Shown piece by piece: positions 1,517-23,332 of a stretch of 38,762 nucleotides of DNA. The DNA comes from Acidobacteriota bacterium. Lineage in GTDB: Bacteria; Acidobacteriota; Blastocatellia; Pyrinomonadales; Pyrinomonadaceae. Every line of letters starts with the position of its first letter. Position 1 is the first letter of the stretch. The stretch lies in assembly GCA_031362765.1 (NCBI GenBank), contig JANLTD010000877.1, positions 1 through 38,762 on the forward strand, in the 5' to 3' direction. Under the pieces are notes generated by a model. That model did no database searches. It was not told the origin of the DNA and saw nothing but the letters and a program-made list of their open reading frames with translations. A program made the translations under genes and the position numbers.

Positions 1517-1522
1517 AGACTA

Positions 1523-2176: not shown

Positions 2177-2199
2177 GGCAGTTTTTGAATTTTATAAAG

Positions 2200-2613
2200 A
2201 TGATGGCTGATGAAGAGTTAAAGAAAATCAATAATCTTCCACAGCTGAAAACATTTCGGGTCACACTCCGAAAAAATCTGACACCGGCGGAAGCGACGCT
2301 TTGGAAATTCTTGAAAAGTTCTCAACTCGACGGTCGAAAATTCAGGCGGCAGCACAGCGTCGGGAACTATATTCTCGATTTCTACTGTCCTTCGGAACGG
2401 CTGGCAATCGAACTCGACGGCGAAGGACATTTTAACGAGCGAGCGATGGAATATGATTACGAACGAAAGTTATTCTTAAATTCTTTTGCAATAAAAGTCA
2501 TCAGATTTGAAAACAAATTAGTGTTCGAGGAACTTGAATACGTTCTGAACAAAATAACTTCTAATTTCGGATGGCGGGAAAAACAAACAAACAAAAACTC
2601 CCCTCCTTCCTAA
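2200..2613 (+). CDS. DUF559 / Vsr-like endonuclease-domain protein
   Basis: LTPAEATLWKFLKSSQLDGRKFRRQHSVGNYILDFYCPSERLAIELDGEGH is the classic DUF559 signature. ATG at 2200 is preferred over the track's TTG at 2185. Confidence 0.8.
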   Translation: MMADEELKKINNLPQLKTFRVTLRKNLTPAEATLWKFLKSSQLDGRKFRRQHSVGNYILDFYCPSERLAIELDGEGHFNERAMEYDYERKLFLNSFAIKVIRFENKLVFEELEYVLNKITSNFGWREKQTNKNSPPS

Positions 2614-2735
2614 GGAGGGGTGGATGCCGCTTCGGCAGACGTGGTGGTTCATAATGTTTATCAGCAGATTTATTTGAGGAAAAGAAAACCACCCCGTCCG
2701 TGAAGAACGGACACCCCTCCTAAAACAGGAGGGAA
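2599..2735 (+). promoter_or_regulatory. Highly structured intergenic RNA/DNA element (nested CCCCTCCT / AGGAGGGG hairpins)
   Basis: Hairpin cccctcctt-cct-aaggagggg lies at 2600-2620 and overlaps the DUF559 stop. Hairpin ccctcct-aaaac-aggaggg lies at 2715-2733. The alternative long-range pairing aggaggggtg (2613-2622) with cacccctcct (2712-2721) is also possible. Inner pairs are tgccg/cggca, acgtggtggtt/aaccaccccgt and gtccgt/acggac. Confidence 0.5.
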
Positions 2736-2749
2736 GTTTAAGAAGGAAT

Positions 2750-4729: not shown

Positions 4730-4809
4730 CCGCAATGCGGAAATTATTCGGGACATTTCCTTTTACTTTTTGTCCTATTTAGTTGTAATCAGAACAAAAA
4801 TAAGGCGAT

Positions 4810-4853
4810 AATGTCCTGATTAGCCTTAAAAAGGATGAAAATGTCCTGATTAG
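4810..4853 (+). promoter_or_regulatory. Putative operator: two identical 14-bp direct repeats AATGTCCTGATTAG with starts 30 bp apart
   Basis: Exact copies at 4810-4823 and 4840-4853, 16 nt upstream of the wHTH-Fic start. A partial inverted copy (ggaaatgtccc on the other strand) lies near 4751-4763. Confidence 0.45.
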
Positions 4854-4868
4854 GAACTGCAAAACGAA

Positions 4869-6275
4869 ATGGCAGGAAAAAAAACAGCCGAAATAGAATC
4901 TGTAATTTTAGAACTGTTGACCGGACAGTCCGAAGTCAGCATTCGCTCGATTGCCCCGGCAGCGGGTTTGTCGCCGGACACCGAAACCGACCGTAAAGCG
5001 ATTCAGCGGGCATTAATCTCACTCGAACGGCAGAATTCGATAATTTCCAAAGGTGAAGGACGTTCGCGTGTCTATGTTTTATCACCCGAGTTTGCCGAGA
5101 AAACAAAAGCATCGGAAAGCGAGAAAACGGAAGATGGCGATTATTTCAAAGGAATCACGCTCTCGCCCGAATCCGAAAACTTGTTAAAAAGCGTTTCACA
5201 GTCGATTGAGAAGCGCATCCCGGTCGGATACAATCTGGAATTTCTGAATTTGTATGAGCCGAACGAAACATTTTATCTGTCTGCCGAACAGCGCGAAAAA
5301 TTACTTTCAATCGGGCGCGCAGAAATAACGGAACGTCCTGCCGGCACATATGCCCGAAACATCCTTGACCGGCTCTTGATAGACCTCTCATGGAATTCAA
5401 GCCGGCTTGAGGGCAACACTTATTCTTTGCTTGAAACAAAGCGTTTAATCGAGCTTGGCGAAACGGCGACCGGAAAGGACGCATCGGAAGCCCAAATGAT
5501 TCTGAATCATAAAGCCGCTATCGAATATATAGTCGAAACTTCTACAGACGATCAGATAACATCTCACGAAGTTTGCAGCATTCACGCGCTTTTGTCCGAA
5601 AACCTTTTAGGCGATCCGGCAGCATCGGGACGCATCAGGAATATTGCGGTCGGCATCAGCGGCACAACATATATTCCGCTGGAAAATCCTCATGTGCTGC
5701 GTGATTGTTTAGAGCTTTTTGTCGAAAAAATCAATCGCATCGAAGACCCTTTCGAGCAGTCATTTTTTTCACTCGTTCATTTATCCTATTTGCAGGCGTT
5801 TGAGGATGTGAATAAGAGAACGGCACGGCTGGCAGCCAACATTCCTTTGGTTAAGAAAAATCTGAAGCCGCTCTCGTTTGCGGACGTTAATAAAGATGCG
5901 TATGTCACTGCTCTTCTGGCAGTTTACGAAACAAACAATATCAGTTTGATCCGCGACCTCTATCTTTGGGCATACAGGCGTTCTTCACAGCGATACACCG
6001 CCATTCAGCAAGCGATGGGCGAGCCAAATTTGTTGAAACTAAAATATAGAAGGGAGATTCAGGAAATTGTGAAAACAATCATTCTCGAAAAGACCGAAGG
6101 ATTTGAGGTTACAAAGAAGATCCAAAACCTGACTGACGCAAAAAACTTTCCCGAATCCGAACGACAAGAGCTTATAAATCTGATCGAGACAGAGATTCTG
6201 AGTTTACACGAAGGAAGCGTCGCACGATTTAAGGTTCGTCCCAGCGAATATCAAGCCTGGAGGGCATTACAGTAA
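4869..6275 (+). CDS. wHTH + Fic-domain protein with degenerate active-site motif
   Basis: N-terminal winged helix (SIRSIAPAAGLS...ALISLERQNSIISKGEGRSRVYVL). The Fic core LQAFEDVNKRTARLAAN (nt 5793-5828 cover QAFEDVNKRTAR) aligns to HPFx[DE]GNGRxxR with H>Q, P>A, G>V, G>K. Confidence 0.8.
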   Translation: MAGKKTAEIESVILELLTGQSEVSIRSIAPAAGLSPDTETDRKAIQRALISLERQNSIISKGEGRSRVYVLSPEFAEKTKASESEKTEDGDYFKGITLSPESENLLKSVSQSIEKRIPVGYNLEFLNLYEPNETFYLSAEQREKLLSIGRAEITERPAGTYARNILDRLLIDLSWNSSRLEGNTYSLLETKRLIELGETATGKDASEAQMILNHKAAIEYIVETSTDDQITSHEVCSIHALLSENLLGDPAASGRIRNIAVGISGTTYIPLENPHVLRDCLELFVEKINRIEDPFEQSFFSLVHLSYLQAFEDVNKRTARLAANIPLVKKNLKPLSFADVNKDAYVTALLAVYETNNISLIRDLYLWAYRRSSQRYTAIQQAMGEPNLLKLKYRREIQEIVKTIILEKTEGFEVTKKIQNLTDAKNFPESERQELINLIETEILSLHEGSVARFKVRPSEYQAWRALQ

Positions 6276-6313
6276 CTTCCATCCAAAGATAATTTCAAAC
6301 AAGGGTAATATTT

Positions 6314-9300
6314 ATGAAACTCAAATTCAAAAAACAAGAGTATCAAACCGACGCCGTTAATGCGGTCGTCAACTGCTTTAAGGGACAACCACCAAGTAGC
6401 AGCGTAAAATATCGGCTCGATCCCGGTCAAAGCGATAAACTCACGTTATTCCAAAATGTCGAAGTGTCGGGTTTCGCCAATGATGATTTTCGCCTGACCG
6501 CACCGCAGATTTATGAAAATATTCAAAACGTTCAGCGCGGGCAAAATCTTTCCGTTTCCAACGAATTAGTCGGCGACAAGAAAACAGGTTGTCAAATAAA
6601 TCTCGATGTCGAAATGGAAACCGGAACGGGAAAAACTTATTGCTACATCAAAACGATGTTTGAACTATATCGGCAATACGGCTGGAGCAAATTCATCGTC
6701 GTCGTGCCGAGCATCGCCATCCGCGAAGGCGTTCACAAATCGTTTGAAATCACGGCCGAACATTTCCTCGAAGATTACGGAAGGCGCGCCAGATTTTTCA
6801 TCTACAATTCAAAACAGCTTCACAATCTCGAAAGTTTTTCATCCGACGCGGGAATCAACGTAATGATTATCAATGTTCAGGCGTTCAATGCACGAGGAAA
6901 GGATAATCGTAGGATTTACGAAGAACTTGATGATTTTCAATCACGCCGACCGATTGACGTCATCAAAGGAAATCGCCCGATTTTGATTCTCGACGAACCG
7001 CAGAAAATGGGCGGCGATGCAACAATGGAATCGCTCAAAGAATTTAAAGCGTTGATGATTCTACGCTACTCAGCCACGCATAAAACGACTTACAACAAAA
7101 TTCATCGGCTTGATGCTCTTGATGCTTATAACCAAAAACTCGTCAAAAAAATCGCCGTTCGCGGAATCTCGGTGAAAGGTTTGACGGGAACAAATGCGTA
7201 TCTTTATCTAAACGAAATAATCGTGTCCACTGATAAGCCGCCGATGGGATCTTTGGAGTTTGAAGTTAACCAAGGAAATGGAATCAAACGAATTACAAGA
7301 AAAGTAAAAAAAGGCGACAATTTATTTGATCTTTCCAATTACCTCGATCAATACAAAGGCTTGGTGATTTCCGATATTGACGCTCGAAATAATACGCTGA
7401 GTTTTACCCAAAAAGAGCCAATAAATGTCGGCGAAGTGATCAACGATCAAAGCGAAGAAGTTTTACGGCGAATCCAAATCCGCGAGGCCATCAAAGCACA
7501 TTTTGAAAAAGAGAGTATGCTTTTTCATCAAGGCATTAAAGTATTGACGCTCTTTTTTATTGATACGGTTTCGAAATACCGGAAATACGACGAAAGCAGC
7601 GAACAAACGGGCGAATACGCCAAATATTTTGAGGAAGAATATCAAAATTTGTTATCGCAATTACCACTACTTCACGAAGATGAATATGCGAATTACCTGA
7701 AAAGAATTCCGCCCGAAAAAACGCACAACGGTTATTTTTCGATTGATAAAAAAAGTAAACGGCTAGTTGACCCATCTTTTAAAACGACTGGCGAAACAGC
7801 GGGGCAAACGGATGATGTTGATGCTTACGATTTAATTCTAAAAGACAAGGAAAGATTGCTTTCATTCGACGAACCGACACGCTTTATCTTTTCCCATTCC
7901 GCTCTGCGCGAAGGTTGGGATAACCCGAATGTATTTGTGATCTGTACGCTCAAACACAGCGACAACACGATTTCCCGCAGGCAGGAAGTCGGACGCGGAA
8001 TGCGAATTTCCGTCAATCAAGCCGGCGACCGAATGGACAACCCGGCGACCGTTCACGACATAAATGTTTTGACGGTTGTCACAAGCGAAAGTTATACCAA
8101 TTTTGTGACGGCATTGCAGAAAGACATCAGTCAATCGCTGTCGAGCCGACCAAAAATCGCCGATAAGGCTTATTTTACTAATAAGGTTTTGAGAACTTCT
8201 GAAGGCGATGTCAAAGTTACGCCCGAAATGGCTTCGCATATGGAGTTTTACCTTATTCAAAACGGTTATGTTGATGTGGATCGGCACATCACCGAGAAAT
8301 ATCACGCGGCGAAACGTGAAGAATCACTGGCACCTTTGCCGAAAGTTCTTTCCGCCCACGGCGAACAGGTTTTTTCGCTGATTGATAGTGTCTTTAGCGA
8401 TGCCCTCTTGCCAAAAGTCGAAGATGATCGCAAAATCCAGGTAAACCACCTTAATGCAAATTTTCAGAAAAAAGAATTTCAGGAACTTTGGAACAAAATC
8501 AATCAAAAAGCCGCCTACACAGTTCACTTCGATTCTTCCGAATTGGTTGAAAAATGTGGCGCTGAACTGAATTCGAATCTGCGGGTTACAAAACTTCAAT
8601 ATACGATTCAGCGCGGACAACAAACTGATTCGGCGACCTATGACGAACTGAAACAGGGTGAAGCGTTCAAATTAGCCGAAACCGCTACCGAAAGTGTTGG
8701 CTCATCTGTCCATTCGGCTGTGAAATACGATCTAATCGGTAGAATTGCCGAAGGAACAAAACTAACACGTCAGACGATTGCCGAAATTCTTACGAAGATT
8801 CAACAAATTGTTTTTGATCAATTCAAAGAAAATCCCGAAGATTTTATTGCGAAAGCGGCAACGCTTATTAATGAACAAAAAGCAACAATGATAGTTGAGC
8901 ATTTGGCATACGATCCAATCGAAGAGAAATACGATACGAATATATTTACGCAGGACAAAACTAAAAGAAATCTTAGCGGCGAAATTCTCAAACGACACAT
9001 TTATGATTATGTCGTGACCGATTCAAAAATAGAACGCGATTTCGTCACGAATCTCGACACCAGCGAAGAAGTTGTGGTCTATGCGAAACTTCCGCGAGGG
9101 TTTTCAATCCCGACACCGGTCGGTGATTATAACCCAGACTGGGCGATTTCGTTTAAGGAAGGCATGGTCAAACACATTTATTTTGTTGCCGAAACGAAAG
9201 GCTCTTTATCATCTATGGAACTGCGAAAAGTCGAACAGTCCAAAATTGAATGCGCCAAGAAGTTCTTTTCAAGAATTACGTCAGATCAAGTTAAATATGA

Positions 9301-9343
9301 TGTTATCAATAACTATGAAAAGCTAATACAAATTGTGAAATAA
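6314..9343 (+). CDS. Type III restriction enzyme Res-like subunit (DEAD/DEAH helicase + PD-(D/E)xK nuclease)
   Basis: Walker [21 protein letters not shown]-equivalent [10 protein letters not shown], helicase C motifs [18 protein letters not shown] and QEVGRGMR. C-terminal nuclease motif YNPDWAI...IYFVAETKG. Confidence 0.9.
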
Positions 9344-9406
9344 GAAGTAATATTAAATTTTCCGATTTCATAAAATCGTAGACATTTATTAAACAGGAGA
9401 ATTTGA

Positions 9407-10195
9407 ATGACCGCGAGCGAGACAAATTCAGCCGATATTAAAAAATTAACCAAACGAAAAAAAGAGACGGGCAATCTTTATACGCGCCGTCCCGACGCGG
9501 AGCTGCAAATTGGCAAAGTCCTCTCGCTGGATTCAGAGCAAATTCTCGAATTTACGAAGGTCAGAGAGCGCAATGCGGCGGATTATCTGCTCGATGAAAC
9601 GATTGTTTATCTATTGCGCGAGATGCCTTTAAGGGAAGAAGATTTCCGTGAAGCTTTATACCGTGAACTTAACCGCCGCATCTGGAAACTGTTAAAGAAG
9701 TTTTACAAAAGATTTAAATCCGTCGCGGATTTTGAAGATTTCGGGCAAAAGATCGAGCTGGTGGTTATCAAAAAGATTTTTGATATAAAATCTGATTCAG
9801 CCGATTACGCGCAAGTCAATTTCGGCGATTTTGTCATTAAAACAGCGAAAGTCGTCTGGCGCGGCGAACTCGTTAAGATCGAGCGCGAAAAAGATTTTTC
9901 TTATACGGAACGTGAAGGCGATGACGAAGAGAACCGCAACCGGATCGAAAACAGCATCAAATCAAATGACGCGCTCACCGATTACACGATGATGCTCAAG
10001 GAAGGGTTAGATAAACTGCCGCCGCATATTATGACTGTCGCCGAATTGCTGCTCGACGGCTGGCAAATTGAAAGCAAGGATGAAATGGAACCGACGATCA
10101 GCAGAAAACTCGATGTCAGCTCCCGAACGATTAGAAATTGGCTGAAAGAGGCGCGCGCGATTCTCGCCGATTATCAAGCAGAGGTAAGAAAATGA
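9407..10195 (+). CDS. Sigma-70/ECF-like protein (divergent) with C-terminal region-4-type HTH
   Basis: C-terminus LPPHIMTVAELLLDGWQIES...ISRKLDVSSRTIRNWLKEAR looks like sigma region 4. A central helical segment could be region 2. SD acaggag precedes the ATG. The assignment is tentative. Confidence 0.4.
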   Translation: MTASETNSADIKKLTKRKKETGNLYTRRPDAELQIGKVLSLDSEQILEFTKVRERNAADYLLDETIVYLLREMPLREEDFREALYRELNRRIWKLLKKFYKRFKSVADFEDFGQKIELVVIKKIFDIKSDSADYAQVNFGDFVIKTAKVVWRGELVKIEREKDFSYTEREGDDEENRNRIENSIKSNDALTDYTMMLKEGLDKLPPHIMTVAELLLDGWQIESKDEMEPTISRKLDVSSRTIRNWLKEARAILADYQAEVRK

Positions 10196-10803
10196 GCGAT
10201 TTGAATTTAGAAGAAGTTTTGGAAGAATACGGAGCGGCGACTCCGTCAGGCAACGATTTGAAAATACTACGGTCTTTCACTGACAGTTATCCGCAATTCG
10301 CGAATGATCTTTCGGATTTTGCCGCCGGCCGCGCCGTTATTCGCCACGCGCCCGAAGAAGAGCTGTCGGATGAAGAAGAGCGGCGGTTTCAGGAATCAGG
10401 TTTGAAAAGCCTGCGGATGGTTTTAAGTTCTCTTAATGCGACGAGTGCCGCTCAAAATGCTCTGTCGAGTCTGGTTGAAACGGCAAAGGCAAAAGGCTTG
10501 AATCGATCGAAATTTGCAGCGGCAATTGGACTGAGTACCTCGCTGGTCATGTATCTTGAAAAACGCCGGCTCGTTTTTGCTTCAATTCCGCAAAAAATAG
10601 TCGCAAAAATCTCGGAGGTATTGGGAACCGGTGAGGAATTGATCTCCGCCTATCTCGATCAGCCGCCGGAGTTTGCATCAAATACCAGTTTCAAAACGGA
10701 AACACGCGCTGAGAATTTGGCACCGAAGAGTTTCGCCGAAGCGGTCCGCGACGACCAGATGCTGACTCCCGAAGAAAAAAGAAAATTACTCGATATCACT
10801 TGA
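10192..10803 (+). CDS. XRE-family HTH protein
   Basis: ATG at 10192 overlaps the upstream stop (ATGA, 10192-10195) and follows SD gagg. The HTH is GLNRSKFAAAIGLSTSLVMYLEKRR. The track's start at 10138 is probably too early. Confidence 0.65.
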   Translation: MSDLNLEEVLEEYGAATPSGNDLKILRSFTDSYPQFANDLSDFAAGRAVIRHAPEEELSDEEERRFQESGLKSLRMVLSSLNATSAAQNALSSLVETAKAKGLNRSKFAAAIGLSTSLVMYLEKRRLVFASIPQKIVAKISEVLGTGEELISAYLDQPPEFASNTSFKTETRAENLAPKSFAEAVRDDQMLTPEEKRKLLDIT

Positions 10804-13800
10804 TAAAAAGTGCCAATGGTCACTTTCAAAGATCCATCTTCCGAAAAAATTTATTCGGACAGGATCATCCATCCAAAATCCTTATGAGTCACTGGCAAAA
10901 AATCCGCGATGCGGCAGGCGCTCTGAGAAGCGAAATCTGCCGGGCATCAAACCTCAACGAAAATGAACTGCTTCCGGCTCACGAGTTACTGGCATTCGCC
11001 TCCGAATACCTTGAACTCGATCTGATTCCCGAACATCCCGATTCCGGGAATTTATCGGGCGCGCTTGCCGTTCTCGAAGACGACTGCATCTATTTCAACA
11101 ATCACTTGAAGAAGTGGTATAAGGCGTTTTGCATCACGCATGAGATCGGTCATCACCGCCTGCACCACACGAGCCTCCACTGCACGCAGGATGAAATTCA
11201 GGAGTTTGCAGGGGACGGGGAAGCCGGCTCCGGAGTCGAAAAAATACTCGGTTACGGCGCCGGTGACAGACGGGAACGTGAAGCGAACCTGTTTGCCCTT
11301 GAACTGCTGCTCCCGTGCGGCGTTTTGCGCCGCCTCTATCTTGATAATAATTTGACCGCGAAACAAATTGCCGGAATTGTTGAAATGCCGGCGGAGACGG
11401 TCGCCGGGCAACTCGCCCGGGCTCTTCTCGTCCCCGTTTCTGAAGTTAGAACGGAAGTAAATAATAATAAAGAAAAAACTGAATTAAATGAGAGTCAAAA
11501 ACGTGCCGCCAAAACCGAGAAATGTCCGACCCTCGTTTACGCCGGGCCGGGAACCGGCAAAACCCAGACATTGACCGAGAGGATCGCACATTTGATCAAA
11601 CAGGGAATCGAGCCGAAACGGATTCTGGCGCTGACCTTCAGCAATAAAGCAGCGGAAGAGATGCGCGAGCGGATCGGAAAGATCAGCCCTGAAGCCGCCT
11701 CGCAAATGCAGGTGATGACCTTTCACGCTTACGGTCTCGATATTTTGCGGACCTACTGGGTTGAAGCGGAACTGGATCCGCGCTCCAAATTGCTTGATAA
11801 AATCGACGCGCTTCTTTACCTCGAAAAAAATCTGAAATTCCTGCGGCTTGAACATTACCAAAATCTGTATGAACCGACCCAAAATCTCTCAGCAATTTTA
11901 GGAGCGATTTCGCGGGCGAAAGATGAACTTTGTTCGCCTGAAGAATACCGTAGTTTAGGGGAAAAAATGCTGGCGGAAGCGCAAAATACCCCGGACAATG
12001 AAGATTTGATTCTAAGGGCGGAAAAAGTGCTTGAAACGGCTCACGCCTACGAGTTTTATCAAAAATATCTGATGCGGGAAAAACTGCTTGATTTCGGCGA
12101 TCTGGTTTATCGCGCAGTGCGGCTTTTGCAGGAAAATGAAGCGGTCAAAGCGGAAGTCCGCGCCAAATACGACGCGATCCTCGTCGATGAATTTCAGGAC
12201 GTCAATCGCGCCTGCGGCGTTCTTCTCAAAGAAATTGCCGGTGCCGGACGCAGTCTCTGGACGGTCGGCGATCTACGGCAGTCGATCTACCGCTGGCGCG
12301 GCGCGTCCCCTGCCAATATCGAGCTTTTCGGAGTTGATTTTCCCGATGCGGAAACAATTTCGCTGGAAGCCAATTACCGTTCGCGGACGGGCATTGTTTC
12401 GCTTTTCTCGGAGTTTGCCCGGATTATGAAAACATCCAGAGAAGAAGTTTTCAATTCGTGGGAAGCAATTCGCGGGGCGGGAACTGACGGCTCGGCTGCC
12501 GTCAGGTTTGAAATTTCCGATTCACTGAAGAGAGAAGCCGCGAATATTGCCGGTCATATCGCCAACTATCATGAACTTGGCTTGAATTATAAAGACTGCG
12601 CCGTTATCTGCCGGACACACGCGCAGCTTAATAAATTCGCTAAAATACTGAGCGAAAAGGCAATCCCGATCTTTTATCTCGGCGAACTTTTTGAACGCGA
12701 TGAAGTTCGCGATATACTCTCATTACTTGATTTGAAAATAACACCCGGCGGACATTCCTTAATTCGCGTGGCATTGTTTCCCGAATACCGTATCCCGCTT
12801 GTCGATGCCCGTAAGATCATTGCCGCGCAAAAGGAAAACGGGCAAACTTACGCGGAAGTTTTGAGCAATTCAGAATTTTTTGATCAATTGTCGGACGAAG
12901 GAAAGCCGGGTGCCGGGAAACTTTTAAATCAATTAACTTCGACTGTCGCTGAAATCTCAGCCTGGGGTTTTCTGGTAAATTATGTATTTACCGAAAGCTC
13001 ATTTCTGAAAACATTTTTCGCTACCGATGATGTCAACAATCAATCGAAACGATTGGCGATCTATCAATTTTTGCGGCTGACCCAAACAACCGAAGAACGC
13101 TTTGCCGGCAGAGAAAACGCGCCAATTTCGGAACTGCTCGAATATGTTAAAAAACTCGCCCATTTTAACGAAGATAAAAACTATGCCCAGATCCCGGTGG
13201 AAGCCGAGAACCTCGATGCCGTCAGGCTTTTAACCGTTCATTCGGCAAAAGGATTGGAATTTCCGGTTGTTTTTACGCCCTACCTCGGAGCCGGAAAGAT
13301 CCCCTCAAAGGCGCAGCCTCAAACATGCCCGAATCCGGACGGAATGATCACGGGAGAAATTGATTTTCACGAGTCGGAAGAAGAATGTTTGTTTTTCGTA
13401 GCAATGTCGCGGACGCGTGATCACCTGCATTTGTCACGCGCTTCCAAATACGGGAAATCAAACAGCGGGGAATCGAAATTTTTGAAGGTTTTAACTGAAT
13501 TTCTCCCGCTTGCCGAACAAATCGATTCGATAGAAACAGAAGCTGCGGAATCGTCTGCACATGAAGTTTTTCTGCCGCAGATATTTTATTCGGCGGATCT
13601 CGACCGCTACATCCGCTGCGAGCGCGATTATTTTTATACGAAGGTTTTAGGATTAAAATCCGCCGGGGATAAATCGATCTATCTAAAATTCCACGGCTGC
13701 GTTTATGATACGATTCGTTCGATGCAGTCAATTAAACAATTGGATACCATCGAATTGACAGAAGTGACCGCTCTTGCCCGGCTTGATGAATTCTGGCTGG

Positions 13801-14306
13801 CAGCTGAAGTTGACTTACACCCATATGCGCCGATCTATAAAACACGCGCCGAAGAAATTATTCGCCGGATGTGCCGGAAAATGGAAAATTCAATTTCACC
13901 GAACGAAATCACGCGCCCGACTTACGAATTAACCCTTTCAAACGGCACCGTGAAAGTTAATCCTGATGCGGTTGAGATCATTGAAACGGGAACTAAAATA
14001 ACCGCGGTTATACGGCAGTATAAAACCGGGAAATCACCGAAAAAGATCGATCTTGACGATAAAGACGTGCTGATGACGGCAGCAGTTCAAAATAACTTTC
14101 CGAAAGCCACACCGTTGCTGCAAAAAATTTATTTGAGCGACGATAACGTGAACGAAGTTCCGGTCACTGCCAAAGTCATAAAATTGCGTTTGGAGAAATA
14201 CGAAAAAGCGATAGACGGTATCAACAATAGAATATTTGAACCAGCGCCGAGCGAAAATAACTGCCCATACTGCCCGCACTTTTTTATTTGTCCGAGTGGC
14301 GAGTAA
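10800..14306 (+). CDS. Fusion protein: ImmA/IrrE (M78) metallopeptidase + UvrD/Rep superfamily-1 helicase + Cas4/AddB-like PD-(D/E)xK nuclease with Fe-S cysteines
   Basis: HEIGH zinc motif at nt 11139-11153 (ITHEIGHHRLHH). Walker A LVYAGPGTGKTQTL; UvrD motifs ALTFSNKAAEEM, ILVDEFQDVN, ANYRS, LLTVHSAKGLEFPVVF. The C-terminus carries YIRCERDYFY and the C-x2-C-x5-C motif NCPYCPHFFICP. TTG at 10800 overlaps the upstream stop (TTGA); the next in-frame ATG is at 10884. Confidence 0.85.
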   Translation: MIKSANGHFQRSIFRKNLFGQDHPSKILMSHWQKIRDAAGALRSEICRASNLNENELLPAHELLAFASEYLELDLIPEHPDSGNLSGALAVLEDDCIYFNNHLKKWYKAFCITHEIGHHRLHHTSLHCTQDEIQEFAGDGEAGSGVEKILGYGAGDRREREANLFALELLLPCGVLRRLYLDNNLTAKQIAGIVEMPAETVAGQLARALLVPVSEVRTEVNNNKEKTELNESQKRAAKTEKCPTLVYAGPGTGKTQTLTERIAHLIKQGIEPKRILALTFSNKAAEEMRERIGKISPEAASQMQVMTFHAYGLDILRTYWVEAELDPRSKLLDKIDALLYLEKNLKFLRLEHYQNLYEPTQNLSAILGAISRAKDELCSPEEYRSLGEKMLAEAQNTPDNEDLILRAEKVLETAHAYEFYQKYLMREKLLDFGDLVYRAVRLLQENEAVKAEVRAKYDAILVDEFQDVNRACGVLLKEIAGAGRSLWTVGDLRQSIYRWRGASPANIELFGVDFPDAETISLEANYRSRTGIVSLFSEFARIMKTSREEVFNSWEAIRGAGTDGSAAVRFEISDSLKREAANIAGHIANYHELGLNYKDCAVICRTHAQLNKFAKILSEKAIPIFYLGELFERDEVRDILSLLDLKITPGGHSLIRVALFPEYRIPLVDARKIIAAQKENGQTYAEVLSNSEFFDQLSDEGKPGAGKLLNQLTSTVAEISAWGFLVNYVFTESSFLKTFFATDDVNNQSKRLAIYQFLRLTQTTEERFAGRENAPISELLEYVKKLAHFNEDKNYAQIPVEAENLDAVRLLTVHSAKGLEFPVVFTPYLGAGKIPSKAQPQTCPNPDGMITGEIDFHESEEECLFFVAMSRTRDHLHLSRASKYGKSNSGESKFLKVLTEFLPLAEQIDSIETEAAESSAHEVFLPQIFYSADLDRYIRCERDYFYTKVLGLKSAGDKSIYLKFHGCVYDTIRSMQSIKQLDTIELTEVTALARLDEFWLAAEVDLHPYAPIYKTRAEEIIRRMCRKMENSISPNEITRPTYELTLSNGTVKVNPDAVEIIETGTKITAVIRQYKTGKSPKKIDLDDKDVLMTAAVQNNFPKATPLLQKIYLSDDNVNEVPVTAKVIKLRLEKYEKAIDGINNRIFEPAPSENNCPYCPHFFICPSGE

Positions 14307-14364: not shown

Positions 14365-14976
14365 TCAACGGGTTATTTTTGAAAGCAGCAAAGTTTTAAT
14401 TTCACGTACTAATTTACGCTTTCCTTTTTTGTCGAGTTCTGAGTTTTGAGATATGTGAAGTTCGATTGTATCGGCGATCGGATATCGTTCCCAAATATCA
14501 GGTTCGGATTCTCTATTTGTCCGTTGACCGATCCCTGATTCCAAAACCTCTTTTATCTCTTCACGGTCACTGATTACAACCACATCTTCCCCGCGCATTT
14601 CAGCGATCCTCGCATCATTTATATCGGTTGTAACAGTAACTTGTTCGCTCAGCAATTTTTCAAGCTCGGCGATATTTCGGTTTGCAATGATTCGTCGAAT
14701 TATTCGGATCGAAAGACCCTGTGACTGAAGATGCTTGATGACGATCAGTGCCAGCAAATGCCGGTAAGAGAAAACCGAAGCAGTCCCTTCTGTATAGTCG
14801 GCAGGAGGAATCAGACCTTCAGTCAGATAATAACGCACGGTACGATCATTCGGGAACGGAGCGACCGTCCCGCTGCCTTGATGAATTTCGGCAGATTCCA
14901 GAATATCTTTAGCCTGCTTTACCAATTCCGCAACACCGACAAATTCCGTTTCCCTGTAATTTTCCAATGATTTCAT
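14365..14976 (-). CDS. MerR-like HTH regulator with uncharacterised C-terminal domain
   Basis: FVGVAELVKQAKDIL...RTVRYYLTEGLIPP...FSYRHLLALIVIKHLQSQGLSIRIIRRII resembles the MerR HTH plus wing. Convergent with the helicase-nuclease gene and divergent from 15142. Confidence 0.5.
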   Translation of the reverse strand: MKSLENYRETEFVGVAELVKQAKDILESAEIHQGSGTVAPFPNDRTVRYYLTEGLIPPADYTEGTASVFSYRHLLALIVIKHLQSQGLSIRIIRRIIANRNIAELEKLLSEQVTVTTDINDARIAEMRGEDVVVISDREEIKEVLESGIGQRTNRESEPDIWERYPIADTIELHISQNSELDKKGKRKLVREIKTLLLSKITR

Positions 14977-15042
14977 AATTAACGCTTAAATTATTCCTTT
15001 GCATTAGTACTGTCAACTCAACTATAGACATTAACAGTTTTT

Positions 15043-15071
15043 ATTGACAAGATATTAAAAATAAACTATGT
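15043..15071 (+). promoter_or_regulatory. Possible sigma-70-type promoter (TTGACA-17-TATGTT)
   Basis: ttgaca at 15043-15048, a 17-nt spacer, and tatgtt at 15066-15071, in the AT-rich divergent intergenic region upstream of 15142. Confidence 0.35.
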
Positions 15072-15141
15072 TGTTAATTACCAGTATTAAGTTTACAATA
15101 ATAACTGTGAATAGCAATTTATAATAGCTGGTGGTTAAGAA

Positions 15142-15714
15142 ATGAAAAATTTAAAAACAATCGTAATTCATCCTTTCGATGAAACGACTCACTTTCTCCA
15201 GGAGATTTATAAGGATAAGGATTTCCACGTATTGAGTGGCCCCGATTTCCCAAAAGAATCGATAAATCCCTTGATGAAAAAATACGATCGGGTTCTGCTT
15301 CTCGGGCACGGTCTTTCCTACGGTCTTCTTAGTGGCTGCCGATTGTTTTTTGACAGGAAAAATGCCGCAGCATTGCAGGGAAAAGCGGTAATTGGAATTT
15401 GGTGTTATGCCAGACAGTTTATGTTCGATAACAAACTGGAAGCTTTCTCAACAAATATGTTCATCAGCGAGAAAATGGAAGCGAATACTTTTTCAATTGA
15501 TGCGACAAGCATTCAAATTGAGTATTCAAACCAGCTTTTTACCAGGGCAGTATCTGAAAATTTACATCTTCCACCCAACAGAATGCGAGACGAAGTTCTA
15601 AAAATTTACCGAAGCGACGACAATCCGGTCATCCAATTTAATTACCGCCAGATGCGGCAACCCCTTGAATTGTTAACCAAAGAGATGAATGAAACCGGAA
15701 TGGAAATGTTTTAA
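15142..15714 (+). CDS. Hypothetical protein (190 aa), no motif recognised
   Basis: Clean ORF with ATG start and protein-like composition. Nothing diagnostic was recognised. Confidence 0.6.
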   Translation: MKNLKTIVIHPFDETTHFLQEIYKDKDFHVLSGPDFPKESINPLMKKYDRVLLLGHGLSYGLLSGCRLFFDRKNAAALQGKAVIGIWCYARQFMFDNKLEAFSTNMFISEKMEANTFSIDATSIQIEYSNQLFTRAVSENLHLPPNRMRDEVLKIYRSDDNPVIQFNYRQMRQPLELLTKEMNETGMEMF

Positions 15715-15869
15715 ACAAGGCAAAGATTTTCAAATGAATGCATTAAGATTTTAGCTTCAACATAATCGAAGAATTTGGGGGTGCCGCAATTTTATTAAGA
15801 AATTTATTTCATCGGACCATTTTTGAAAAGGAGCACTGGTTAAATAAGCATAGGTAAAAAGGAAAAAAT

Positions 15870-16388
15870 ATGAAAAATTTGGATAAGATAATAACGACAA
15901 AATCCAGGGTATTAATACTCGGAACAATGCCGGGAAAAAAGTCTTTGGAATTAGATGAATATTATGCCAATCCCCGCAATCAATTCTGGGGAATAATGGA
16001 TTATCTGGTAGAAGGAATTTCAAACCTTGAGTATAAAAAGAAGATAAGTCTATTAAATGAAAAGGGAATTGCGCTTTGGGACGTTTTGCTCAGTTGCGAG
16101 CGGGAAGGGAGTCTGGATTCAAAAATCAAAAAAGGCACGGAAAAACCCAATGACTTTCAGGAATTTTTCGACCGAAATAAAAATCTTCGCACTGTTATCT
16201 TTAACGGGAAAAGCAAAAGGTCGGCTTACCGGCTGTTCAGGAAAATCGTATTGCCCACGCTTCGGACGGAAACAAAATCGTCTCTAATACTCATACCGCT
16301 TCCTTCAAGTTCTTCGGCGAATACTCATCAAACATTACAGGAAAAGGCAGAGGAGTGGATGAAAATTTCAGATTATTTAACAAAGTGA
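15870..16388 (+). CDS. DNA-deoxyinosine (hypoxanthine-DNA) glycosylase, UDG superfamily
   Basis: N-terminal LILGTMPGKKSLELDEYYANPRNQFWGIM and C-terminal LPSSSSAN match my memory of the UDG family-6 hypoxanthine-DNA glycosylase signature. Confidence 0.7.
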   Translation: MKNLDKIITTKSRVLILGTMPGKKSLELDEYYANPRNQFWGIMDYLVEGISNLEYKKKISLLNEKGIALWDVLLSCEREGSLDSKIKKGTEKPNDFQEFFDRNKNLRTVIFNGKSKRSAYRLFRKIVLPTLRTETKSSLILIPLPSSSSANTHQTLQEKAEEWMKISDYLTK

Positions 16389-16601: not shown

Positions 16602-16886
16602 ATGCCGCAGAACAAATTAACTTTTAACCAGATCTTAGCCGGAGTTGAAAAGGACAATTCCGAACGATTAATGAAAAAAGCCCGCACCGCGAATAGTTTG
16701 GCGAAAAAAACGCGTGGCGCTCAGAGACAGACGGCTTACGCCGTGAAGACCGGGGCGCTCTGTTCACTCGTTAAAAAAATGCCTGCCCGAATCGACGTTC
16801 GCAAAGACATTATTCTGACCGATTTTGTCGTGATCGAACTCAAAAACACAAATGTCGGACTGCATTTTCCGATTATTAACCTTTAA
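16602..16886 (+). CDS. Small hypothetical protein (94 aa)
   Basis: ATG at 16602 preceded by SD ggagag (16591-16596). Basic N-terminal half. No motif recognised. Confidence 0.5.
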   Translation: MPQNKLTFNQILAGVEKDNSERLMKKARTANSLAKKTRGAQRQTAYAVKTGALCSLVKKMPARIDVRKDIILTDFVVIELKNTNVGLHFPIINL

Positions 16887-16924
16887 ACACATTTAGTTAC
16901 CGGGAGCCGAAGGAAAATCACCTT

Positions 16925-17761: not shown

Positions 17762-18676
17762 ATGAAAGTACTGAAGAGTTTTATTAACAGCCTGAAGATA
17801 GGCGACCCGCTTGCATTTAACCAACTTACTATTAAACCTATTTTTACCGGGACGGATTTCTCTCTGCCGCTGCTGACGCTTGAAGAGGCATTGGAGCAAA
17901 AGGCGCTGGAAATCACGGAAAAAAGCGAAGGCGGCAGCGTTCCCGAGCTTCTGGTCAAGAACCTGGGAAATATTGATGTGATTGTTCTTGAAGGCGAGGA
18001 ACTTCGCGGGGCAAAGCAGAACCGGATCGTGAACACGACCATCATAATCCCCGCCGGAGGCGAGATCATCCTGCCCGTTTCCTGCGTCGAACAGGGACGC
18101 TGGAGTTATGTCTCAAAGAGTTTTTCGTCGGGCGGAAATGTGCTTTATCCGAGCCTGAGAAAACTCAGCCACGATTCCGTGACAAAAAGCCTGCGCCGGG
18201 ACAGGAGTTATGAATCTGACCAAACAGGCATCTGGTCGGAACTGAAGCTCAAATCGGCGCGCATGTCGGTGAAGAGCGACACGGATGCCATGAGCGACAT
18301 TCTTGCGTGCCGCATTTCGCCCGAAGCAGAAACCGATCTGCTTGAAGAAATTCCGTATCAGGAAAAGCAAATCGGTTTTCTCGCCTTTATTAAAGGCAGA
18401 TTCGCCGGCGGCGATATTTTCGGGTCCGCCGATCTTTGCGAAAAACAAATGAGGAAACTGCTGCGCGGCTATTACCTGGACGCATTGGACAGCGACGTGA
18501 AATTTCCCGCGCTTGACGCGGCAGAAATTCTAAAGCAAATTCCGATCGCTCATCAGGAACAGTTTGCGGCAATCGGCAAAGGAACGGAAATGCGGTTTGA
18601 GGCAGATAAGATTCAGGGCGCCTGGAAAATGGTCGATGAAAACCTTTCGCACCTGACAGTGTTTCCAAAAGGCTAA
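17762..18676 (+). CDS. ARPP-1 / DUF6569-like protein
   Basis: SEGGSVPELLVKNLGNIDVIVLEGEELRGAKQNRIVNTTIIIPAGGEIILPVSCVEQGRWSY matches the conserved core I remember for DUF6569 (ARG- and rhodanese-phosphatase-associated protein 1). Confidence 0.6.
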   Translation: MKVLKSFINSLKIGDPLAFNQLTIKPIFTGTDFSLPLLTLEEALEQKALEITEKSEGGSVPELLVKNLGNIDVIVLEGEELRGAKQNRIVNTTIIIPAGGEIILPVSCVEQGRWSYVSKSFSSGGNVLYPSLRKLSHDSVTKSLRRDRSYESDQTGIWSELKLKSARMSVKSDTDAMSDILACRISPEAETDLLEEIPYQEKQIGFLAFIKGRFAGGDIFGSADLCEKQMRKLLRGYYLDALDSDVKFPALDAAEILKQIPIAHQEQFAAIGKGTEMRFEADKIQGAWKMVDENLSHLTVFPKG

Positions 18677-18867
18677 AAATCTCGACAAATATGAAAGTTG
18701 TGTACGGGCAACGGCTTGAAAACATGACTTGATTAGTGATGTTGGGGGTTCTCAAATCTCTAAATACTTTCCATTTCAATTAAGACGCATTGCCGGAATC
18801 AGTGCTTAAACTCTTTCGATTGAGTTGAATTGCAATCGTTGAAACTCAATCCTGAAAAATTAAAAAT

Positions 18868-20448
18868 ATGAAAAATCTTTTACTTATTGCCTTAATGGCG
18901 ATGACCGCTTTCTTACCCTTTTCCTTAATGCCTGCGCCCGTTGCGGCTCAGGAAATAAAACAGGAAAAACTAACCAACAAGGATCTGGTTGAAATGTCGA
19001 AATCGGGTCTGCCCGAAACGATCATTTTAGCCAAAATTAAATCCTCCGGCGGGAACTTTGATACTTCGCCCGCGGCGCTTCAGGAGCTTAAAAAGGAAGG
19101 CGTCTCCGACACGATAATTATAGCGCTCCTGCAGCCGGATGAACCGAAAAAGGGGCGCATGAGGGACGAATTAACTACCAGCTTTAATCGTTTGAAAACA
19201 AGCGTCGTTACTGTCTGGAGCGAGTTTGGACACGGAACCGGCTTTATCATTGATAAAGATGGATTGATCCTGACCAATCAGCATGTGGTCGGTCCAAGTG
19301 AATATATTGCCGTCCAATTTGACGAGAAAAGAAAAGTGCGGGCAACTCTGCTGGCAGCGAGCGCGGAAAAGGATGTCGCGGTTCTGTGGGCAAATTTAGA
19401 AGGACTGCCCGAGGCAACCGTGGCGGTGATTGCCAAAACCGATGCTGAGGAACCTGCGGTAACTGAAGGCGAGAGGGTTTTCACGATCGGCAGTCCGCTA
19501 AATCAAAAGAAGATCATCACGACCGGCATTGCCAGCAAGATCGAAGAAAAAGCCATAATCTCGGACATCAACATCAATCATGGAAATTCCGGCGGCGCCC
19601 TTTTTAATTCGATCGGCGAGGTCGTCGGCATCACAACCTTCGGGGATCTCTCCATCTCCGGCGGTCCGGGCGTGTCTGGTATTATCCGCATCGAGCAGGC
19701 ATTTCCAATTATTGAGGAAGCTCGAATGAAAATGGCGACCGTCCAGAAACCGCCGGCAAAACTTCTTTTAGTTGATCCGACCGACACCTTTCCGATCGAA
19801 GCCATTAAAGAAATTGCCGCCGCTAAAAAATTCGATACGTCCCGTTATATATTGGGCATCGGGGATTTTACGGTGACCTTCATGACGCCGACTCTCAAAT
19901 ACCGTTTGGAAACCGAAGCCGAACGCGAAGCCGCCAAAACGCGGGGCAAACGCAACAAAAAGGAGGGTGCAGTGCAGGGAACCTTTCGCCCGTTCGAGGA
20001 TATCCGCGGCTGGCGCGAATACGTCGGCGACTATAAACCGATTTTGCTCATCCGGGCGACTCCTCTTCTGGGGGAATCTTTCTGGGGAGCTTTCGGACGC
20101 GGCGTCGCGGCAAACTACGGCATTCGCGTGCCGGCGAAACTGCGCTTTAAAACGGATTTTTATAAAATGCGTTTAATCTGCGGAGAACGAGAAGTTGAAC
20201 CGATCCATCCGGCAAAGATCGCTCATATTTTAAGCGAAAGCAACTATCTGATCTCGGTTAAGGACGCAACTTATGAAGGTTTTTACTCGTATCCTGCTGA
20301 CGCAATAAACGAGCAATGCGGCAAAGTGACGATTGAGCTCTTTTCTGAGAAAAATCCGACGGAAGCTAAAATCAAAGTACTGGATGAGAAAACCGTCACC
20401 AAGATAGCTGGCGATTTTGCTCCTTATCTTGATTCCCGTCCAAAATAA
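18868..20448 (+). CDS. Secreted trypsin-like (S1/HtrA-type) serine protease
   Basis: Signal peptide MKNLLLIALMAMTAFLPFSLMPAPVAAQE. His box GTGFIIDKDGLILTNQHVV, Asp region EKDVAVLW, Ser box INHGNSGGALFN. Confidence 0.8.
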   Translation: MKNLLLIALMAMTAFLPFSLMPAPVAAQEIKQEKLTNKDLVEMSKSGLPETIILAKIKSSGGNFDTSPAALQELKKEGVSDTIIIALLQPDEPKKGRMRDELTTSFNRLKTSVVTVWSEFGHGTGFIIDKDGLILTNQHVVGPSEYIAVQFDEKRKVRATLLAASAEKDVAVLWANLEGLPEATVAVIAKTDAEEPAVTEGERVFTIGSPLNQKKIITTGIASKIEEKAIISDININHGNSGGALFNSIGEVVGITTFGDLSISGGPGVSGIIRIEQAFPIIEEARMKMATVQKPPAKLLLVDPTDTFPIEAIKEIAAAKKFDTSRYILGIGDFTVTFMTPTLKYRLETEAEREAAKTRGKRNKKEGAVQGTFRPFEDIRGWREYVGDYKPILLIRATPLLGESFWGAFGRGVAANYGIRVPAKLRFKTDFYKMRLICGEREVEPIHPAKIAHILSESNYLISVKDATYEGFYSYPADAINEQCGKVTIELFSEKNPTEAKIKVLDEKTVTKIAGDFAPYLDSRPK

Positions 20449-20471
20449 ATTAGCGGATAAGATTGTCCGGT

Positions 20472-20509
20472 GTGCTGTGCCCGCTAATTTGAAAATGCGG
20501 GCGCAGCAC
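20472..20509 (+). terminator. Stem-loop after the protease gene (no clear U-tract)
   Basis: 13-bp stem gtgctgtgcccgc / gcgggcgcagcac (one G-U pair) with a 12-nt loop. Confidence 0.35.
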
Positions 20510-20587
20510 AAAACAACAATTTGAACGGCATAAAAGTGATTGGTTTCAGAGATTAAATTTAATATGTTGTAAACTGAAGCAATTTGT

Positions 20588-22494: not shown

Positions 22495-22515
22495 TTTAAG
22501 GAGGTGTAAAACGTT

Positions 22516-23331: not shown

Positions 23332-23332
23332 G

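Follow-up and report, generated by a model that had tools for sequence, protein, structure and literature searches.

A window of 38,762 nucleotides from an Acidobacteriota bacterium (Pyrinomonadaceae; assembly GCA_031362765.1, contig JANLTD010000877.1) contains three neighbouring genes, called here open reading frames (ORFs) 1 to 3. The window means this whole stretch, and its coordinates are 1-based. ORF1 looks like a divergent sigma factor and ORF2 like a small DNA-binding partner protein, while ORF3 joins a zinc protease, a helicase and a nuclease-fold domain in a single polypeptide. With a probability of about 0.6, the locus is a modular DNA-sensing transcription switch plus a set of output genes. 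This reading draws on the gene content of the locus, its conservation, the catalytic motifs that are intact or lost, the promoter-like motifs that its genes share, and the adjacency of the trio to effector operons in other bacteria. The trio itself seems to control neighbouring effectors and not to be a defence system complete in itself.

The gene trio and its fusion protein

The three genes, the domains of the third protein and a short repeat in front of its gene are placed as follows. Lengths are in amino acids (aa); ECF stands for extracytoplasmic function, HTH for helix-turn-helix and SF1 for superfamily 1.

9407..10195, plus strand: ORF1, 262 aa, ATG start; predicted divergent ECF-type sigma-70 family protein
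10192..10803, plus strand: ORF2, 203 aa, ATG start; partner protein with a predicted XRE-like HTH
10884..14306, plus strand: ORF3 with its corrected start, 1140 aa; M78 peptidase, UvrD/PcrA-type SF1 helicase and nuclease-fold domain
10866..10883, plus strand: degenerate remnant of an AAATCCR heptamer array, about 1.5 copies; in relatives the array lies directly 5' of the ORF3 start
about 11061-11405, plus strand: M78 ImmA/IrrE-type peptidase domain of ORF3, with HEIGH at 11139-11153
11484-13445, plus strand: UvrD/PcrA-type SF1 helicase domain of ORF3 (Pfam UvrD-helicase and UvrD_C)
13599-14294, plus strand: AdnA/AddB-like four-cysteine nuclease-fold domain of ORF3, lacking the catalytic residues (Pfam and profile alignment)

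An earlier reading of this DNA, made from the sequence only, described three translationally coupled genes at this place. The three same-strand genes are there, and the first pair overlaps as described. ORF1 has a ribosome-binding site (AGGAG, 9395-9399), and its stop codon shares the letters ATGA (10192-10195) with the start codon of ORF2. Overlap or close abutment of these two genes is repeated in relatives.

The second overlap does not survive. It had been placed at a TTGA (10800-10803), with a third gene of 1168 aa, and the long reading frame is indeed open from TTG 10800 to 14306. That start was considered and ruled out. More than 100 full-length homologues of ORF3, with 43-93% identity and 98% coverage of the query, have lengths of about 1137-1143 aa and align from a conserved MSHWQK. 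In most of 14 related loci, moreover, the frame 5' of the ORF3 ATG is closed by a stop within 1-21 codons, and the distance from the ORF2 stop to this ATG is 15-251 nucleotides. ORF3 therefore starts at ATG 10884, and the TTGA “coupling” is an accident of a frame that happens to be open in the window. Coupling is thus retained for ORF1 and ORF2 and dropped for ORF2 and ORF3, at least in the window; unlike there, genes 2 and 3 do overlap by 4 nucleotides in several proteobacterial loci.

The start codon of ORF3 has no Shine-Dalgarno sequence. The AAATCCR heptamers in front of it number 1-5 copies across loci. They stand in tandem just 5' of ORF3 in related loci L002, L007, L009, L010 and L012, and in L014 (9966-9999) Tandem Repeats Finder reports a period of 7, 4.9 copies and a 100% match. 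Such an array might enhance translation or serve as a contingency tract that varies by slippage.

Domain calls on the long ORF were judged against the Pfam gathering scores, and all four exceed theirs. Peptidase_M78 (PF06114) reaches 31.6 bits (cut-off 22) at aa 88-202 of the 1168-aa reading, UvrD-helicase 235.5 bits, UvrD_C 118.2 bits and PDDEXK_1 40.1 bits (cut-off 22). ORF3 also matches PHROG 87, a metallo-protease, with an expectation value (E) of 2.7e-11. The residues H86, E87, H90, E131, A134, N135, F137 and A138, which make up HExxH and ExxANxFA, are invariant in 32 relatives. The same is true of the Walker A motif GPGTGKT and of the DExx box (DExQD in the family; DEFQD here). The HEIGH-type M78 peptidase and the complete UvrD/Rep SF1 helicase that the sequence-only reading had recognised in gene 3 are both borne out by these matches.

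Its third domain call, a Cas4/AddB-type nuclease, is right about the cysteines and wrong about the active site. C912 is invariant, and C1127, C1130 and C1136 (C-x2-C-x5-C) are kept in at least 90% of the 32 relatives and in proteobacterial homologues too. The PD-(D/E)xK catalytic residues, on the other hand, are absent across the family. Where motif III of AdnA reads VVVDLKTGK, ORF3 has IRQYKTGK, so that the catalytic aspartate is a glutamine. Elsewhere in the family this position holds Q, K, R, N, M or another non-acidic residue, and in several members the lysine is replaced by arginine. The aspartate of motif II is likewise unconserved (D, N, Y, E, S or H). The loss of catalytic residues is common to homologues from Acidobacteriota and Proteobacteria, and the earlier proposal that this domain degrades DNA is not supported.

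Among genuine solved relatives, a profile of the C-terminal domain comes closest to mycobacterial AdnA (6ppj/7sjr, E 2-4e-3). Phage Gp34 (9d83) came first in the profile search but was disregarded, since the similarity seems to be one of low-complexity helices. Nothing useful came from PDB searches that used the M78 domain or the nuclease domain as a single sequence; only the C-terminal-domain profile reached AdnA. From its residues, the domain is best read as a pseudo-nuclease that would still hold an iron-sulphur (Fe-S) cluster. DNA binding is its probable role, as the Fe-S domain of AddB suggests by analogy. The loss of the nuclease residues and the retention of four cysteines fit a sensor rather than a degrader. 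For annotation, this means that the C-terminal “nuclease” of this helicase family is not to be presumed active.

An alternative raised along with the sequence-only reading was that ORF3 is simply an AddA/B-type repair helicase of the core genome. Its scores against NCBIfam equivalog models fall far below the cut-offs (AddA 142 bits against 708; RecB 120 against 696), and its neighbours are island-like or plasmid genes in most loci. ORF3 does not count as a PcrA, UvrD or Rep equivalog either, as it scores 331 bits where the cut-off is 911.

The fusion is characteristic of this M78 domain. When the M78 region (215 aa) was searched against 1.8 billion representative proteins, 398 relatives were found. 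Most of the full-length ones are 1080-1250 aa long with M78 at the N-terminus, and the domain is found almost only in this form. All 8 distant relatives that were checked have the same four-domain architecture.

ORF1 alone has no Pfam match and no named family in PADLOC or the PHROGs. It aligns with the NCBIfam sigma70-ECF model TIGR02937 at 20.3 bits (cut-off 42.9; E 3.5e-4), over profile positions 3-162 of 165. This model is matched by 34 of 35 ORF1 family members (E of 0.01 or less; best 1e-11), the match spans both sigma domains, and every other NCBIfam match among the relatives is a sigma factor. Pfam finds Sigma70_r4_2 in 22 of the 35. An AlphaFold2 model of ORF1 has a mean confidence score (pLDDT) of 76 and a region 4 HTH at about aa 205-255. 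All 50 PDB matches listed by Foldseek for this model are sigma factors aligned over both domains, including SigE (1or7), SigL and AlgU, with probabilities of up to 1.0 but E values of at least 2e-3. The earlier sigma-like call for this gene is upheld by the family-wide profile matches and by the folds. Judged by these profiles and the model, ORF1 is probably a divergent ECF-type sigma factor, of which region 2 is the weakly supported part.

ORF2 belongs to no named family of PADLOC or Pfam, and no known anti-sigma domain was detected in it. Its AlphaFold2 model (pLDDT 72) has an N-terminal four-helix domain (1-86) and a central five-helix, XRE-like HTH (about 94-155). A linker follows (163-174) that is disordered yet contains invariant residues, and the C-terminal tail is strongly conserved. 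Foldseek returns XRE HTH domains for the model, among them NGO0477, the N-terminal domain of CapH, C-proteins, HigA and DdrO, with probabilities of about 0.99 but E values of at least 0.2; PHROG 8 is matched at E 3e-3. The model and these matches give moderate support to an XRE-like HTH, as had been called before. ORF2 is presumed to be the substrate of the protease and to act as a repressor or an anti-sigma factor.

The three genes travel together, and the synteny on which the sequence-only reading depended is found in several phyla. Homologues of ORF1 and ORF2 precede ORF3 in all 12 acidobacterial loci that contain upstream sequence, the most distant of which has 43% ORF3 identity. The trio also recurs in metagenomic relatives whose M78 domain is only 28-37% identical. 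Its range takes in Acidobacteriota, Alpha-, Beta- and Gammaproteobacteria, and Cyanobacteria. One metagenome-assembled genome (Pyrinomonadales SVL2_sbin.4) has two diverged copies, L004 and L013, with ORF3 76% and 68% identical to that of the window.

Many copies are on plasmids. The M78 region matches 91 PLSDB records, 45 of them from Acinetobacter. Other genera are Rhizobium, Sinorhizobium, Agrobacterium, Mesorhizobium, Bradyrhizobium, Variovorax, Xanthomonas, Aquincola, Klebsiella and Leptolyngbya, besides others, and the plasmids include conjugative and mobilizable ones. In each of 10 annotated plasmid regions that were examined, the fusion gene is preceded by two genes, the first encoding 162-265 aa and the second 188-221 aa. 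NCBI names the first of these “sigma-70 family RNA polymerase sigma factor”, “sigma factor-like HTH DNA-binding protein”, “LuxR family” or hypothetical. Profile-profile comparison with hhalign joins the ORF1 profile to the proteobacterial gene-1 family profile (probability 99.6, E 2.4e-24) and the ORF2 profile to that of gene 2 over its full length (probability 99.2, E 2.8e-19). The acidobacterial profiles against a single Xanthomonas protein gave matches that are too weak (E 0.01 and 5.9e-5); only the profile-profile comparison is decisive.

On Aquincola plasmid B (L019, 3923-4378 and neighbours), the trio stands beside antirestriction, DUF1173 and DUF1845 genes and is followed by a BilA-like fragment; it looks like a decayed copy. 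A search of phage genomes returned three weak matches only, to ordinary ImmA proteins, so the cassette is not a phage module.

Putative output genes and a shared two-box motif

Beyond ORF3, the window contains two further genes of the same strand, c3 and c4. A two-box motif occurs before the trio and before each of these genes. Its sites are called P1 to P3, with scores from the position weight matrix described below.

9360..9388, plus strand: P1, TTCCGAT (9360-9366), 16-nucleotide spacer, CATTTA (9383-9388); 30.7 bits
16534..16562, plus strand: P2, TTCCGAT, 16-nucleotide spacer, CATTTC, ending 39 nucleotides upstream of the c3 ATG; 24.3 bits
16602..16886, plus strand: c3, conserved 94-aa protein, putative first output gene; synteny with c4
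16867..16895, plus strand: P3, TTCCGAT, 16-nucleotide spacer, CATTTA, ending 29 nucleotides upstream of the c4 ATG; 25.7 bits
16925..17590, plus strand: c4, stand-alone exonuclease (3'-5') of the family-B-polymerase type, 221 aa, putative second output gene; PF10108

The protein c4 matches PF10108 (DNA_pol_B_exo2, E 5.7e-11) and PHROG 403, “DNA polymerase exonuclease subunit” (E 5e-21). None of the aligned relatives departs from its ExoI (DxE) and ExoII motifs, and c4 is probably an effector. For c3 there is no Pfam, PADLOC or PHROG match. It was considered as a ubiquitin-like protein and rejected, having no BilA match and no C-terminal glycine. Both genes lie downstream of ORF3 in 11 of the 15 loci scanned. 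L014 has c3 alone, with a VWA gene in the slot of c4, and the distant L030 has a 97-aa ORF (assigned by position only) and a PolB_exo2 gene in the two slots. The copies in L004 and L013 each have a c3-c4 pair and motif copies of their own.

In PADLOC-DB v2.0.0, no defence model matches ORF1, ORF2, c3 or c4, which agrees with the earlier view that this architecture is not a named defence system. ORF3 matches only generic UvrD models in the same database (GajB, DRT helicase).

In other phyla, the place after the trio is taken by known immune operons. An example is the Xanthomonas plasmid pXCV183, where the trio is followed by a Bil operon (BilA to BilD, PADLOC E 4.9e-57, 3e-60, 2.4e-61 and 6.5e-175). 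This gene order is shared by R. leguminosarum, Variovorax and Pseudohalocynthiibacter; S. medicae has part of it, and Aquincola keeps a remnant. In A. baumannii, A. johnsonii, K. pneumoniae and Leptolyngbya boryana, the trio is followed by genes for a multiubiquitin protein, ThiF and DUF6527. This operon is type II Bub in the naming of 10.1101/2024.11.21.623966. The trio stands directly upstream of the Bil and Bub operons and is co-directional with bilABCD, with the bub genes and, in Acidobacteriota, with c3-c4.

The motif TTCCGAT-N16-CATTTA has a fixed spacing before ORF1 in 12 acidobacterial loci whose flanks further upstream are unrelated. P1 ends 18 nucleotides 5' of the ORF1 ATG, and the distance is 13-17 nucleotides across these loci. 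A position weight matrix was built from the two boxes only, using the 12 sites upstream of ORF1, and both strands of the window and of 17 loci were scanned with it. At 14 bits or more there were 44 matches, against 1.75 expected in shuffles. Beyond the 12 training sites, high-scoring matches lie almost only upstream of c3 and c4, and the scan found no motif between ORF2 and ORF3. An equivalent of P2 precedes c3 in other loci. P3 is present in most loci and missing in L012 and L015, in which the C-terminus of c3 differs.

The spacer of P1 contains the inverted repeat CGATTTcataAAATCG. Such short inverted repeats in P1 spacers are candidate operators for ORF2.

On plasmids, the motif is found upstream of the Bil or Bub operon in 10 of 10 loci and upstream of gene 1 in most. 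In the Bil-linked plasmids it stands before gene 1 and a second time in the stretch from the ORF3 stop to bilA, with the -35 box TTCCG(A/G)(T/G)T. The -10 box varies between these loci yet matches within a locus. Before gene 1 and bilA, respectively, it reads GCGACTT and GCGACTT in Xanthomonas, GCGATCA and GCGATCA in R. leguminosarum, ACGATTA and ACGATTA in Pseudohalocynthiibacter, and GGTTTGTA and GGTTGTA in S. medicae. In the Bub-linked clade, the boxes ATTTACCG and TCGATTA lie upstream of the Ubl gene, with similar boxes before gene 1 in the two Acinetobacter loci; no clear gene-1 promoter is seen in Leptolyngbya and Klebsiella. The distant L030 also has a motif pair; L028-L030 were read by eye for such pairs.

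On Variovorax sp. RA8 plasmid 2 (L022, 5305-5460), three tandem motif copies (TTCCGATT-N16-GCGACT/GCGAAT) stand before gene 1 and one before bilA.

The -35 box is retained from phylum to phylum, as is region 4 of ORF1, which is nearly invariant. Two non-palindromic boxes at a fixed spacing, with a -35 box shared between phyla and a covarying -10 box, would be expected in promoters that the sigma factor of the cassette itself recognises, and they are untypical of the operator of a dimeric repressor. From these sequence features, ORF1 would be the protein that reads TTCCGAT-N16-CATTTA.

The proposed switch and its rivals

In the proposed mechanism, ORF1 would act as a dedicated ECF-type sigma factor that reads private promoters before ORF1-ORF2-ORF3, c3 and c4. 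ORF2, made in step with it, would prevent activation: it would either bind the sigma factor and hold it or occupy the inverted repeat of the P1 spacer. ORF3 would be the sensor. Its UvrD-type motor and its dead four-cysteine AdnA/AddB-like domain would engage DNA ends or single-stranded DNA that come from an invader or from damage. This engagement would switch on the N-terminal zinc protease, which is of the ImmA/IrrE/CapP type. The protease would then cut ORF2, probably in the conserved disordered linker (about 163-174). The freed sigma factor would amplify its own operon and induce the effectors: c3 and the PolB-type exonuclease in the window, and Bil or type II Bub operons in Proteobacteria and Cyanobacteria.

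The sequence-only reading had sketched a circuit of this kind, in which helicase engagement activates the protease, the XRE protein is cleaved and sigma-dependent transcription follows. The linkage of helicase, M78 protease, XRE protein and sigma factor holds up, given the synteny across phyla, the shared motif and the Bil and Bub adjacency. The coupling of ORF2 to ORF3 in the window does not, and the parallel degradation of DNA by ORF3 is unlikely. The probable output genes, c3 and c4, had no place in that earlier circuit.

Several points weigh against the switch. Sigma region 2 is weakly detected in the ORF1 family (Pfam Sigma70_r2 in only 2 of 35 relatives), and ORF1 of the window scores below the TIGR02937 cut-off. 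The HTH call for ORF2 comes from weak Foldseek and PHROG scores. The effector function of c3 and c4 is putative. The -35 box of P3 overlaps the last codons of c3 (F-P-I), which are conserved, so part of the conservation of P3 may be coding constraint. Four loci (L001, L017, L028 and L029) have the trio without a recognisable effector or a second motif copy; in L001 and L017 the scan gave no convincing second copy. L016 encodes a 1362-aa fusion with an N-terminal extension, which has no sigma or XRE neighbours and lies in a core-gene setting. Finally, the protease substrate, the activating ligand, the recognition of the motif by ORF1 and the anti-phage role are all parts of the scheme that we infer. 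For the ligand, it is the fused helicase alone that suggests activation by single-stranded DNA.

The main rival is that the trio controls a DNA-damage regulon, SOS-like or of the IrrE/DdrO type. In that case chromosomal breaks or gaps would be what ORF3 senses, and DNA repair would fall to the exonuclease with its 94-aa partner; the biochemistry would be that of the switch. Such a regulon would suit the proofreading type of the exonuclease in the window, the UDG-like and HIT genes among the locus inserts, and the housekeeping surroundings of some distant relatives: HPPK, DivIVA, Sua5 and GAPDH in L017, LeuCD and ClpXP in L016, and SelB in L029. CapP, CapW and CapK, too, respond to DNA damage (PMC13373217). 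A repair regulon is disfavoured by the company that the trio keeps. In Acidobacteriota, the genes upstream of it vary, and most belong to defence: three loci have BrxL immediately upstream, three have SNF2 (two of them with PglZ), the window has type III restriction-modification and Fic, and one locus has mnmE. The window as a whole is a defence island, with a cyclic-oligonucleotide-based antiphage signalling system (CBASS), type III restriction-modification and a Fic gene. The two diverged copies in one metagenome-assembled genome speak against repair as well, as does the presence of the cassette on conjugative and mobilizable plasmids, directly before Bil and Bub operons. Repair is an improbable reading, and still the best placed of the alternatives.

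Less probable again is that the effector is ORF3, which would degrade invader DNA as a helicase-nuclease of the AddA/AdnA/Nhi kind, while ORF1 and ORF2 only autoregulate it and the downstream genes are unrelated. Its intact helicase motifs, the PDDEXK_1 match above the Pfam threshold, the Cas4/AddB-type cysteines and the GajB-like UvrD matches in PADLOC could all be explained in this way. Degradation of DNA is hard to reconcile with a domain in which the acid and lysine of motif III and the aspartate of motif II are unconserved family-wide, and the AddA, RecB and PcrA equivalog scores are far under their cut-offs. Unrelated downstream genes, for their part, would not be expected to have the same promoter-like motif before them in nearly every locus.

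Equally doubtful is that ORF1 is an ordinary LuxR-like HTH activator, or the motif an ORF2 operator, with a housekeeping sigma factor in use: the varied NCBI names (“LuxR family”, “transcriptional regulator”, “sigma factor-like HTH DNA-binding protein”), the region 2 that Pfam hardly detects and the inverted repeats in the P1 spacers would allow for it, but the TIGR02937 matches over both sigma domains in 34 of 35 members, the sigma-only NCBIfam matches, the 50 listed Foldseek matches, all to sigma factors over both domains, and a non-palindromic two-box motif with a fixed spacing of 16-17 nucleotides at promoter distance from the starts all argue for a sigma factor.

Surroundings and known systems

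Between ORF3 and c3, the window has an insert that is variable between loci.

14365..16388, strand not assigned: hot-spot insert between ORF3 and c3, with other genes or none in other loci
14365-14976, minus strand: MerR-family gene (Pfam)
15142-15714, strand not assigned: 190-aa ORF of the insert, no family
15870-16388, strand not assigned: UDG-superfamily gene (Pfam)

In L003 the same place holds HEAT, DUF3293 and MetK genes, in L011 an ADP-ribosylglycohydrolase gene and in L013 a HIT gene; in others there is nothing. The insert is probably cargo at a hot spot and not part of the core.

Upstream of the trio lies the type III restriction-modification island (44-9343). It consists of a helicase C-terminal fragment (44-1516), a DUF4391 gene (1523-2176), a DUF559 endonuclease-like gene (2185-2613), Mod (2750-4729) and Res (6314-9343), with a Fic/SoFic-like gene (4869-6275) between Mod and Res.

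After c4 comes a run that resembles conflict systems (17762-24577). It begins with ARPP-1 (17762-18676), a trypsin-like protease (18868-20448) and a 443-aa ORF without a family, and continues with an HD gene (22039-22494), a histidine phosphatase (22516-23331) and an EEP nuclease/phosphatase (23333-24577). ARPP-1 follows c4 in L003 and L008 too, and no promoter motif was found before it.

A full group II intron occupies 25510-27835 (minus strand), with Rfam matches to D1-D4 and to domain V/VI and with a reverse transcriptase/maturase/HNH ORF (25584-27272). A second copy of about 760 nucleotides (36561-37319, minus strand) has no ORF and matches both Rfam ends. A tyrosine integrase (28065-29066, minus strand) lies between the full intron and the CBASS genes, and a homologous integrase is found just downstream of the system in L012. 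The 38,762 nucleotides contain no tRNA gene.

The CBASS-like operon (29331-34092, minus strand) comprises a SAVED effector (29331-30530), a 141-aa ORF and an SMODS/CD-NTase gene (31336-32520). Before these come a 193-aa ORF (32653-33234) and a 284-aa protein (33238-34092) with weak Pfam matches to STAS and GHKL-ATPase. On those weak matches, the pair resembles the recently described CapS/CapK regulators. An ADP-ribosylglycohydrolase gene (37358-38551) stands at the edge of the window; its relatives cluster with a 554-aa ORF in L013.

When bacteria turn on costly immune operons is an active question, and several regulators of such operons have been described. Papers on Bil and Bub operons (PMC13373217, 10.1101/2023.09.26.559546, 10.1101/2024.11.21.623966) name CapW/BrxR, CapH+CapP and CapK+CapS, and mention no helicase. 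Full-text literature searches that paired an M78/ImmA-type protease with a helicase or a sigma factor found nothing relevant. Within the limits of the literature searched, there is no description of the cassette; for its components and for its logic there are known precedents.

The odds are about even that the trio is a widespread fourth class of such controllers of adjacent pathways. In this class, a DNA-translocating sensor would be joined to an M78 protease, with a private ECF-like sigma factor and its promoters as the output, and its targets would be many Bil and type II Bub operons, those of Acinetobacter and Klebsiella plasmids among them, together with the acidobacterial exonuclease pair. 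If this is true, the class would stand beside CapW/BrxR, CapH+CapP and CapK+CapS as a regulator of costly immune operons. Its new feature would be an M78 protease fused to a helicase that could itself generate or track the activating single-stranded DNA. As its output would be a dedicated sigma factor and not simple de-repression, it could act as an insulated, self-amplifying switch.

The cassette is also a candidate regulator for Bil and type II Bub operons that are now listed without one, and it is present on clinically relevant plasmids. An example is the type II Bub operon of Leptolyngbya boryana, which is listed without a regulator in Dataset EV1 of PMC13373217; on the plasmid of this cyanobacterium, the trio lies directly upstream of it. 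In addition, the cassette predicts promoters, in the form of -35 and -10 boxes, and flags the pair of an uncharacterised 94-aa protein and a PolB-type exonuclease.

The closest known system is CapH/CapP. CapP is an M78 protease that single-stranded DNA switches on and that cleaves the XRE repressor CapH, which induces adjacent immune operons; ImmR/ImmA of ICEBs1 and DdrO/IrrE of Deinococcus are further precedents (PMC13373217). All of these share with the trio a gene for an M78 HExxH peptidase that adjoins a gene for an XRE-type HTH protein. As with CapH/CapP, the regulator lies directly upstream of immune operons, including Bil and Bub, and the expected logic would, by analogy, be the same: a DNA signal activates the protease, the HTH protein is cut and transcription is induced.

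There are also differences. CapP stands alone, whereas the peptidase here forms the N-terminus of a 1140-aa fusion, in which a UvrD helicase and then a catalytically dead nuclease-fold domain of the Fe-S type come after it. The module always has a third member, the sigma-factor gene. The partner protein is about 200 aa long and, unlike CapH, has extra N- and C-terminal domains. Lastly, capH/capP has been described as divergent to Bil operons, with a shared promoter region (10.1101/2023.09.26.559546), whereas the present cassette is co-directional with its target operon.

For the helicase part, the likeness is to AdnA/AdnB and AddA/AddB. These have an SF1 UvrD-like helicase followed by a PD-(D/E)xK-fold domain, with an upstream cysteine and C-x2-C-x5-C. 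ORF3 differs in lacking the catalytic aspartate and the (D/E)xK, in its added N-terminal M78 domain, in having no partner subunit encoded here, and in its mobile or island-like context in most loci.

For the output, one parallel is the sigma-E/RseA type of regulation. As in that type, the sigma factor of the cassette has two domains, would share its transcript with a small partner to whose translation its own is coupled, and would have an autoregulated two-box promoter; release by proteolysis is presumed for the cassette. The partner in the cassette differs from RseA in being cytoplasmic, with an XRE-like HTH and no known anti-sigma domain detected, and the protease is a cytoplasmic helicase fusion rather than the membrane site-1 and site-2 proteases.

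Another parallel is found in type III-E CRISPR, in which Craspase, together with Csx30/Csx31, releases the RpoE-like CASP-sigma. By analogy, both would use a nucleic-acid-activated protease that cuts an inhibitor and so releases a dedicated ECF-type sigma factor as the immune output. The components differ. Type III-E employs gRAMP and the caspase-like TPR-CHAT, whereas the cassette has a UvrD helicase and an M78 metalloprotease; the inhibitors are unrelated, and NF041236, the NCBIfam model for the type III-E CRISPR sigma factor, is matched weakly by only 1 of 35 ORF1 relatives (E 2.6e-3).

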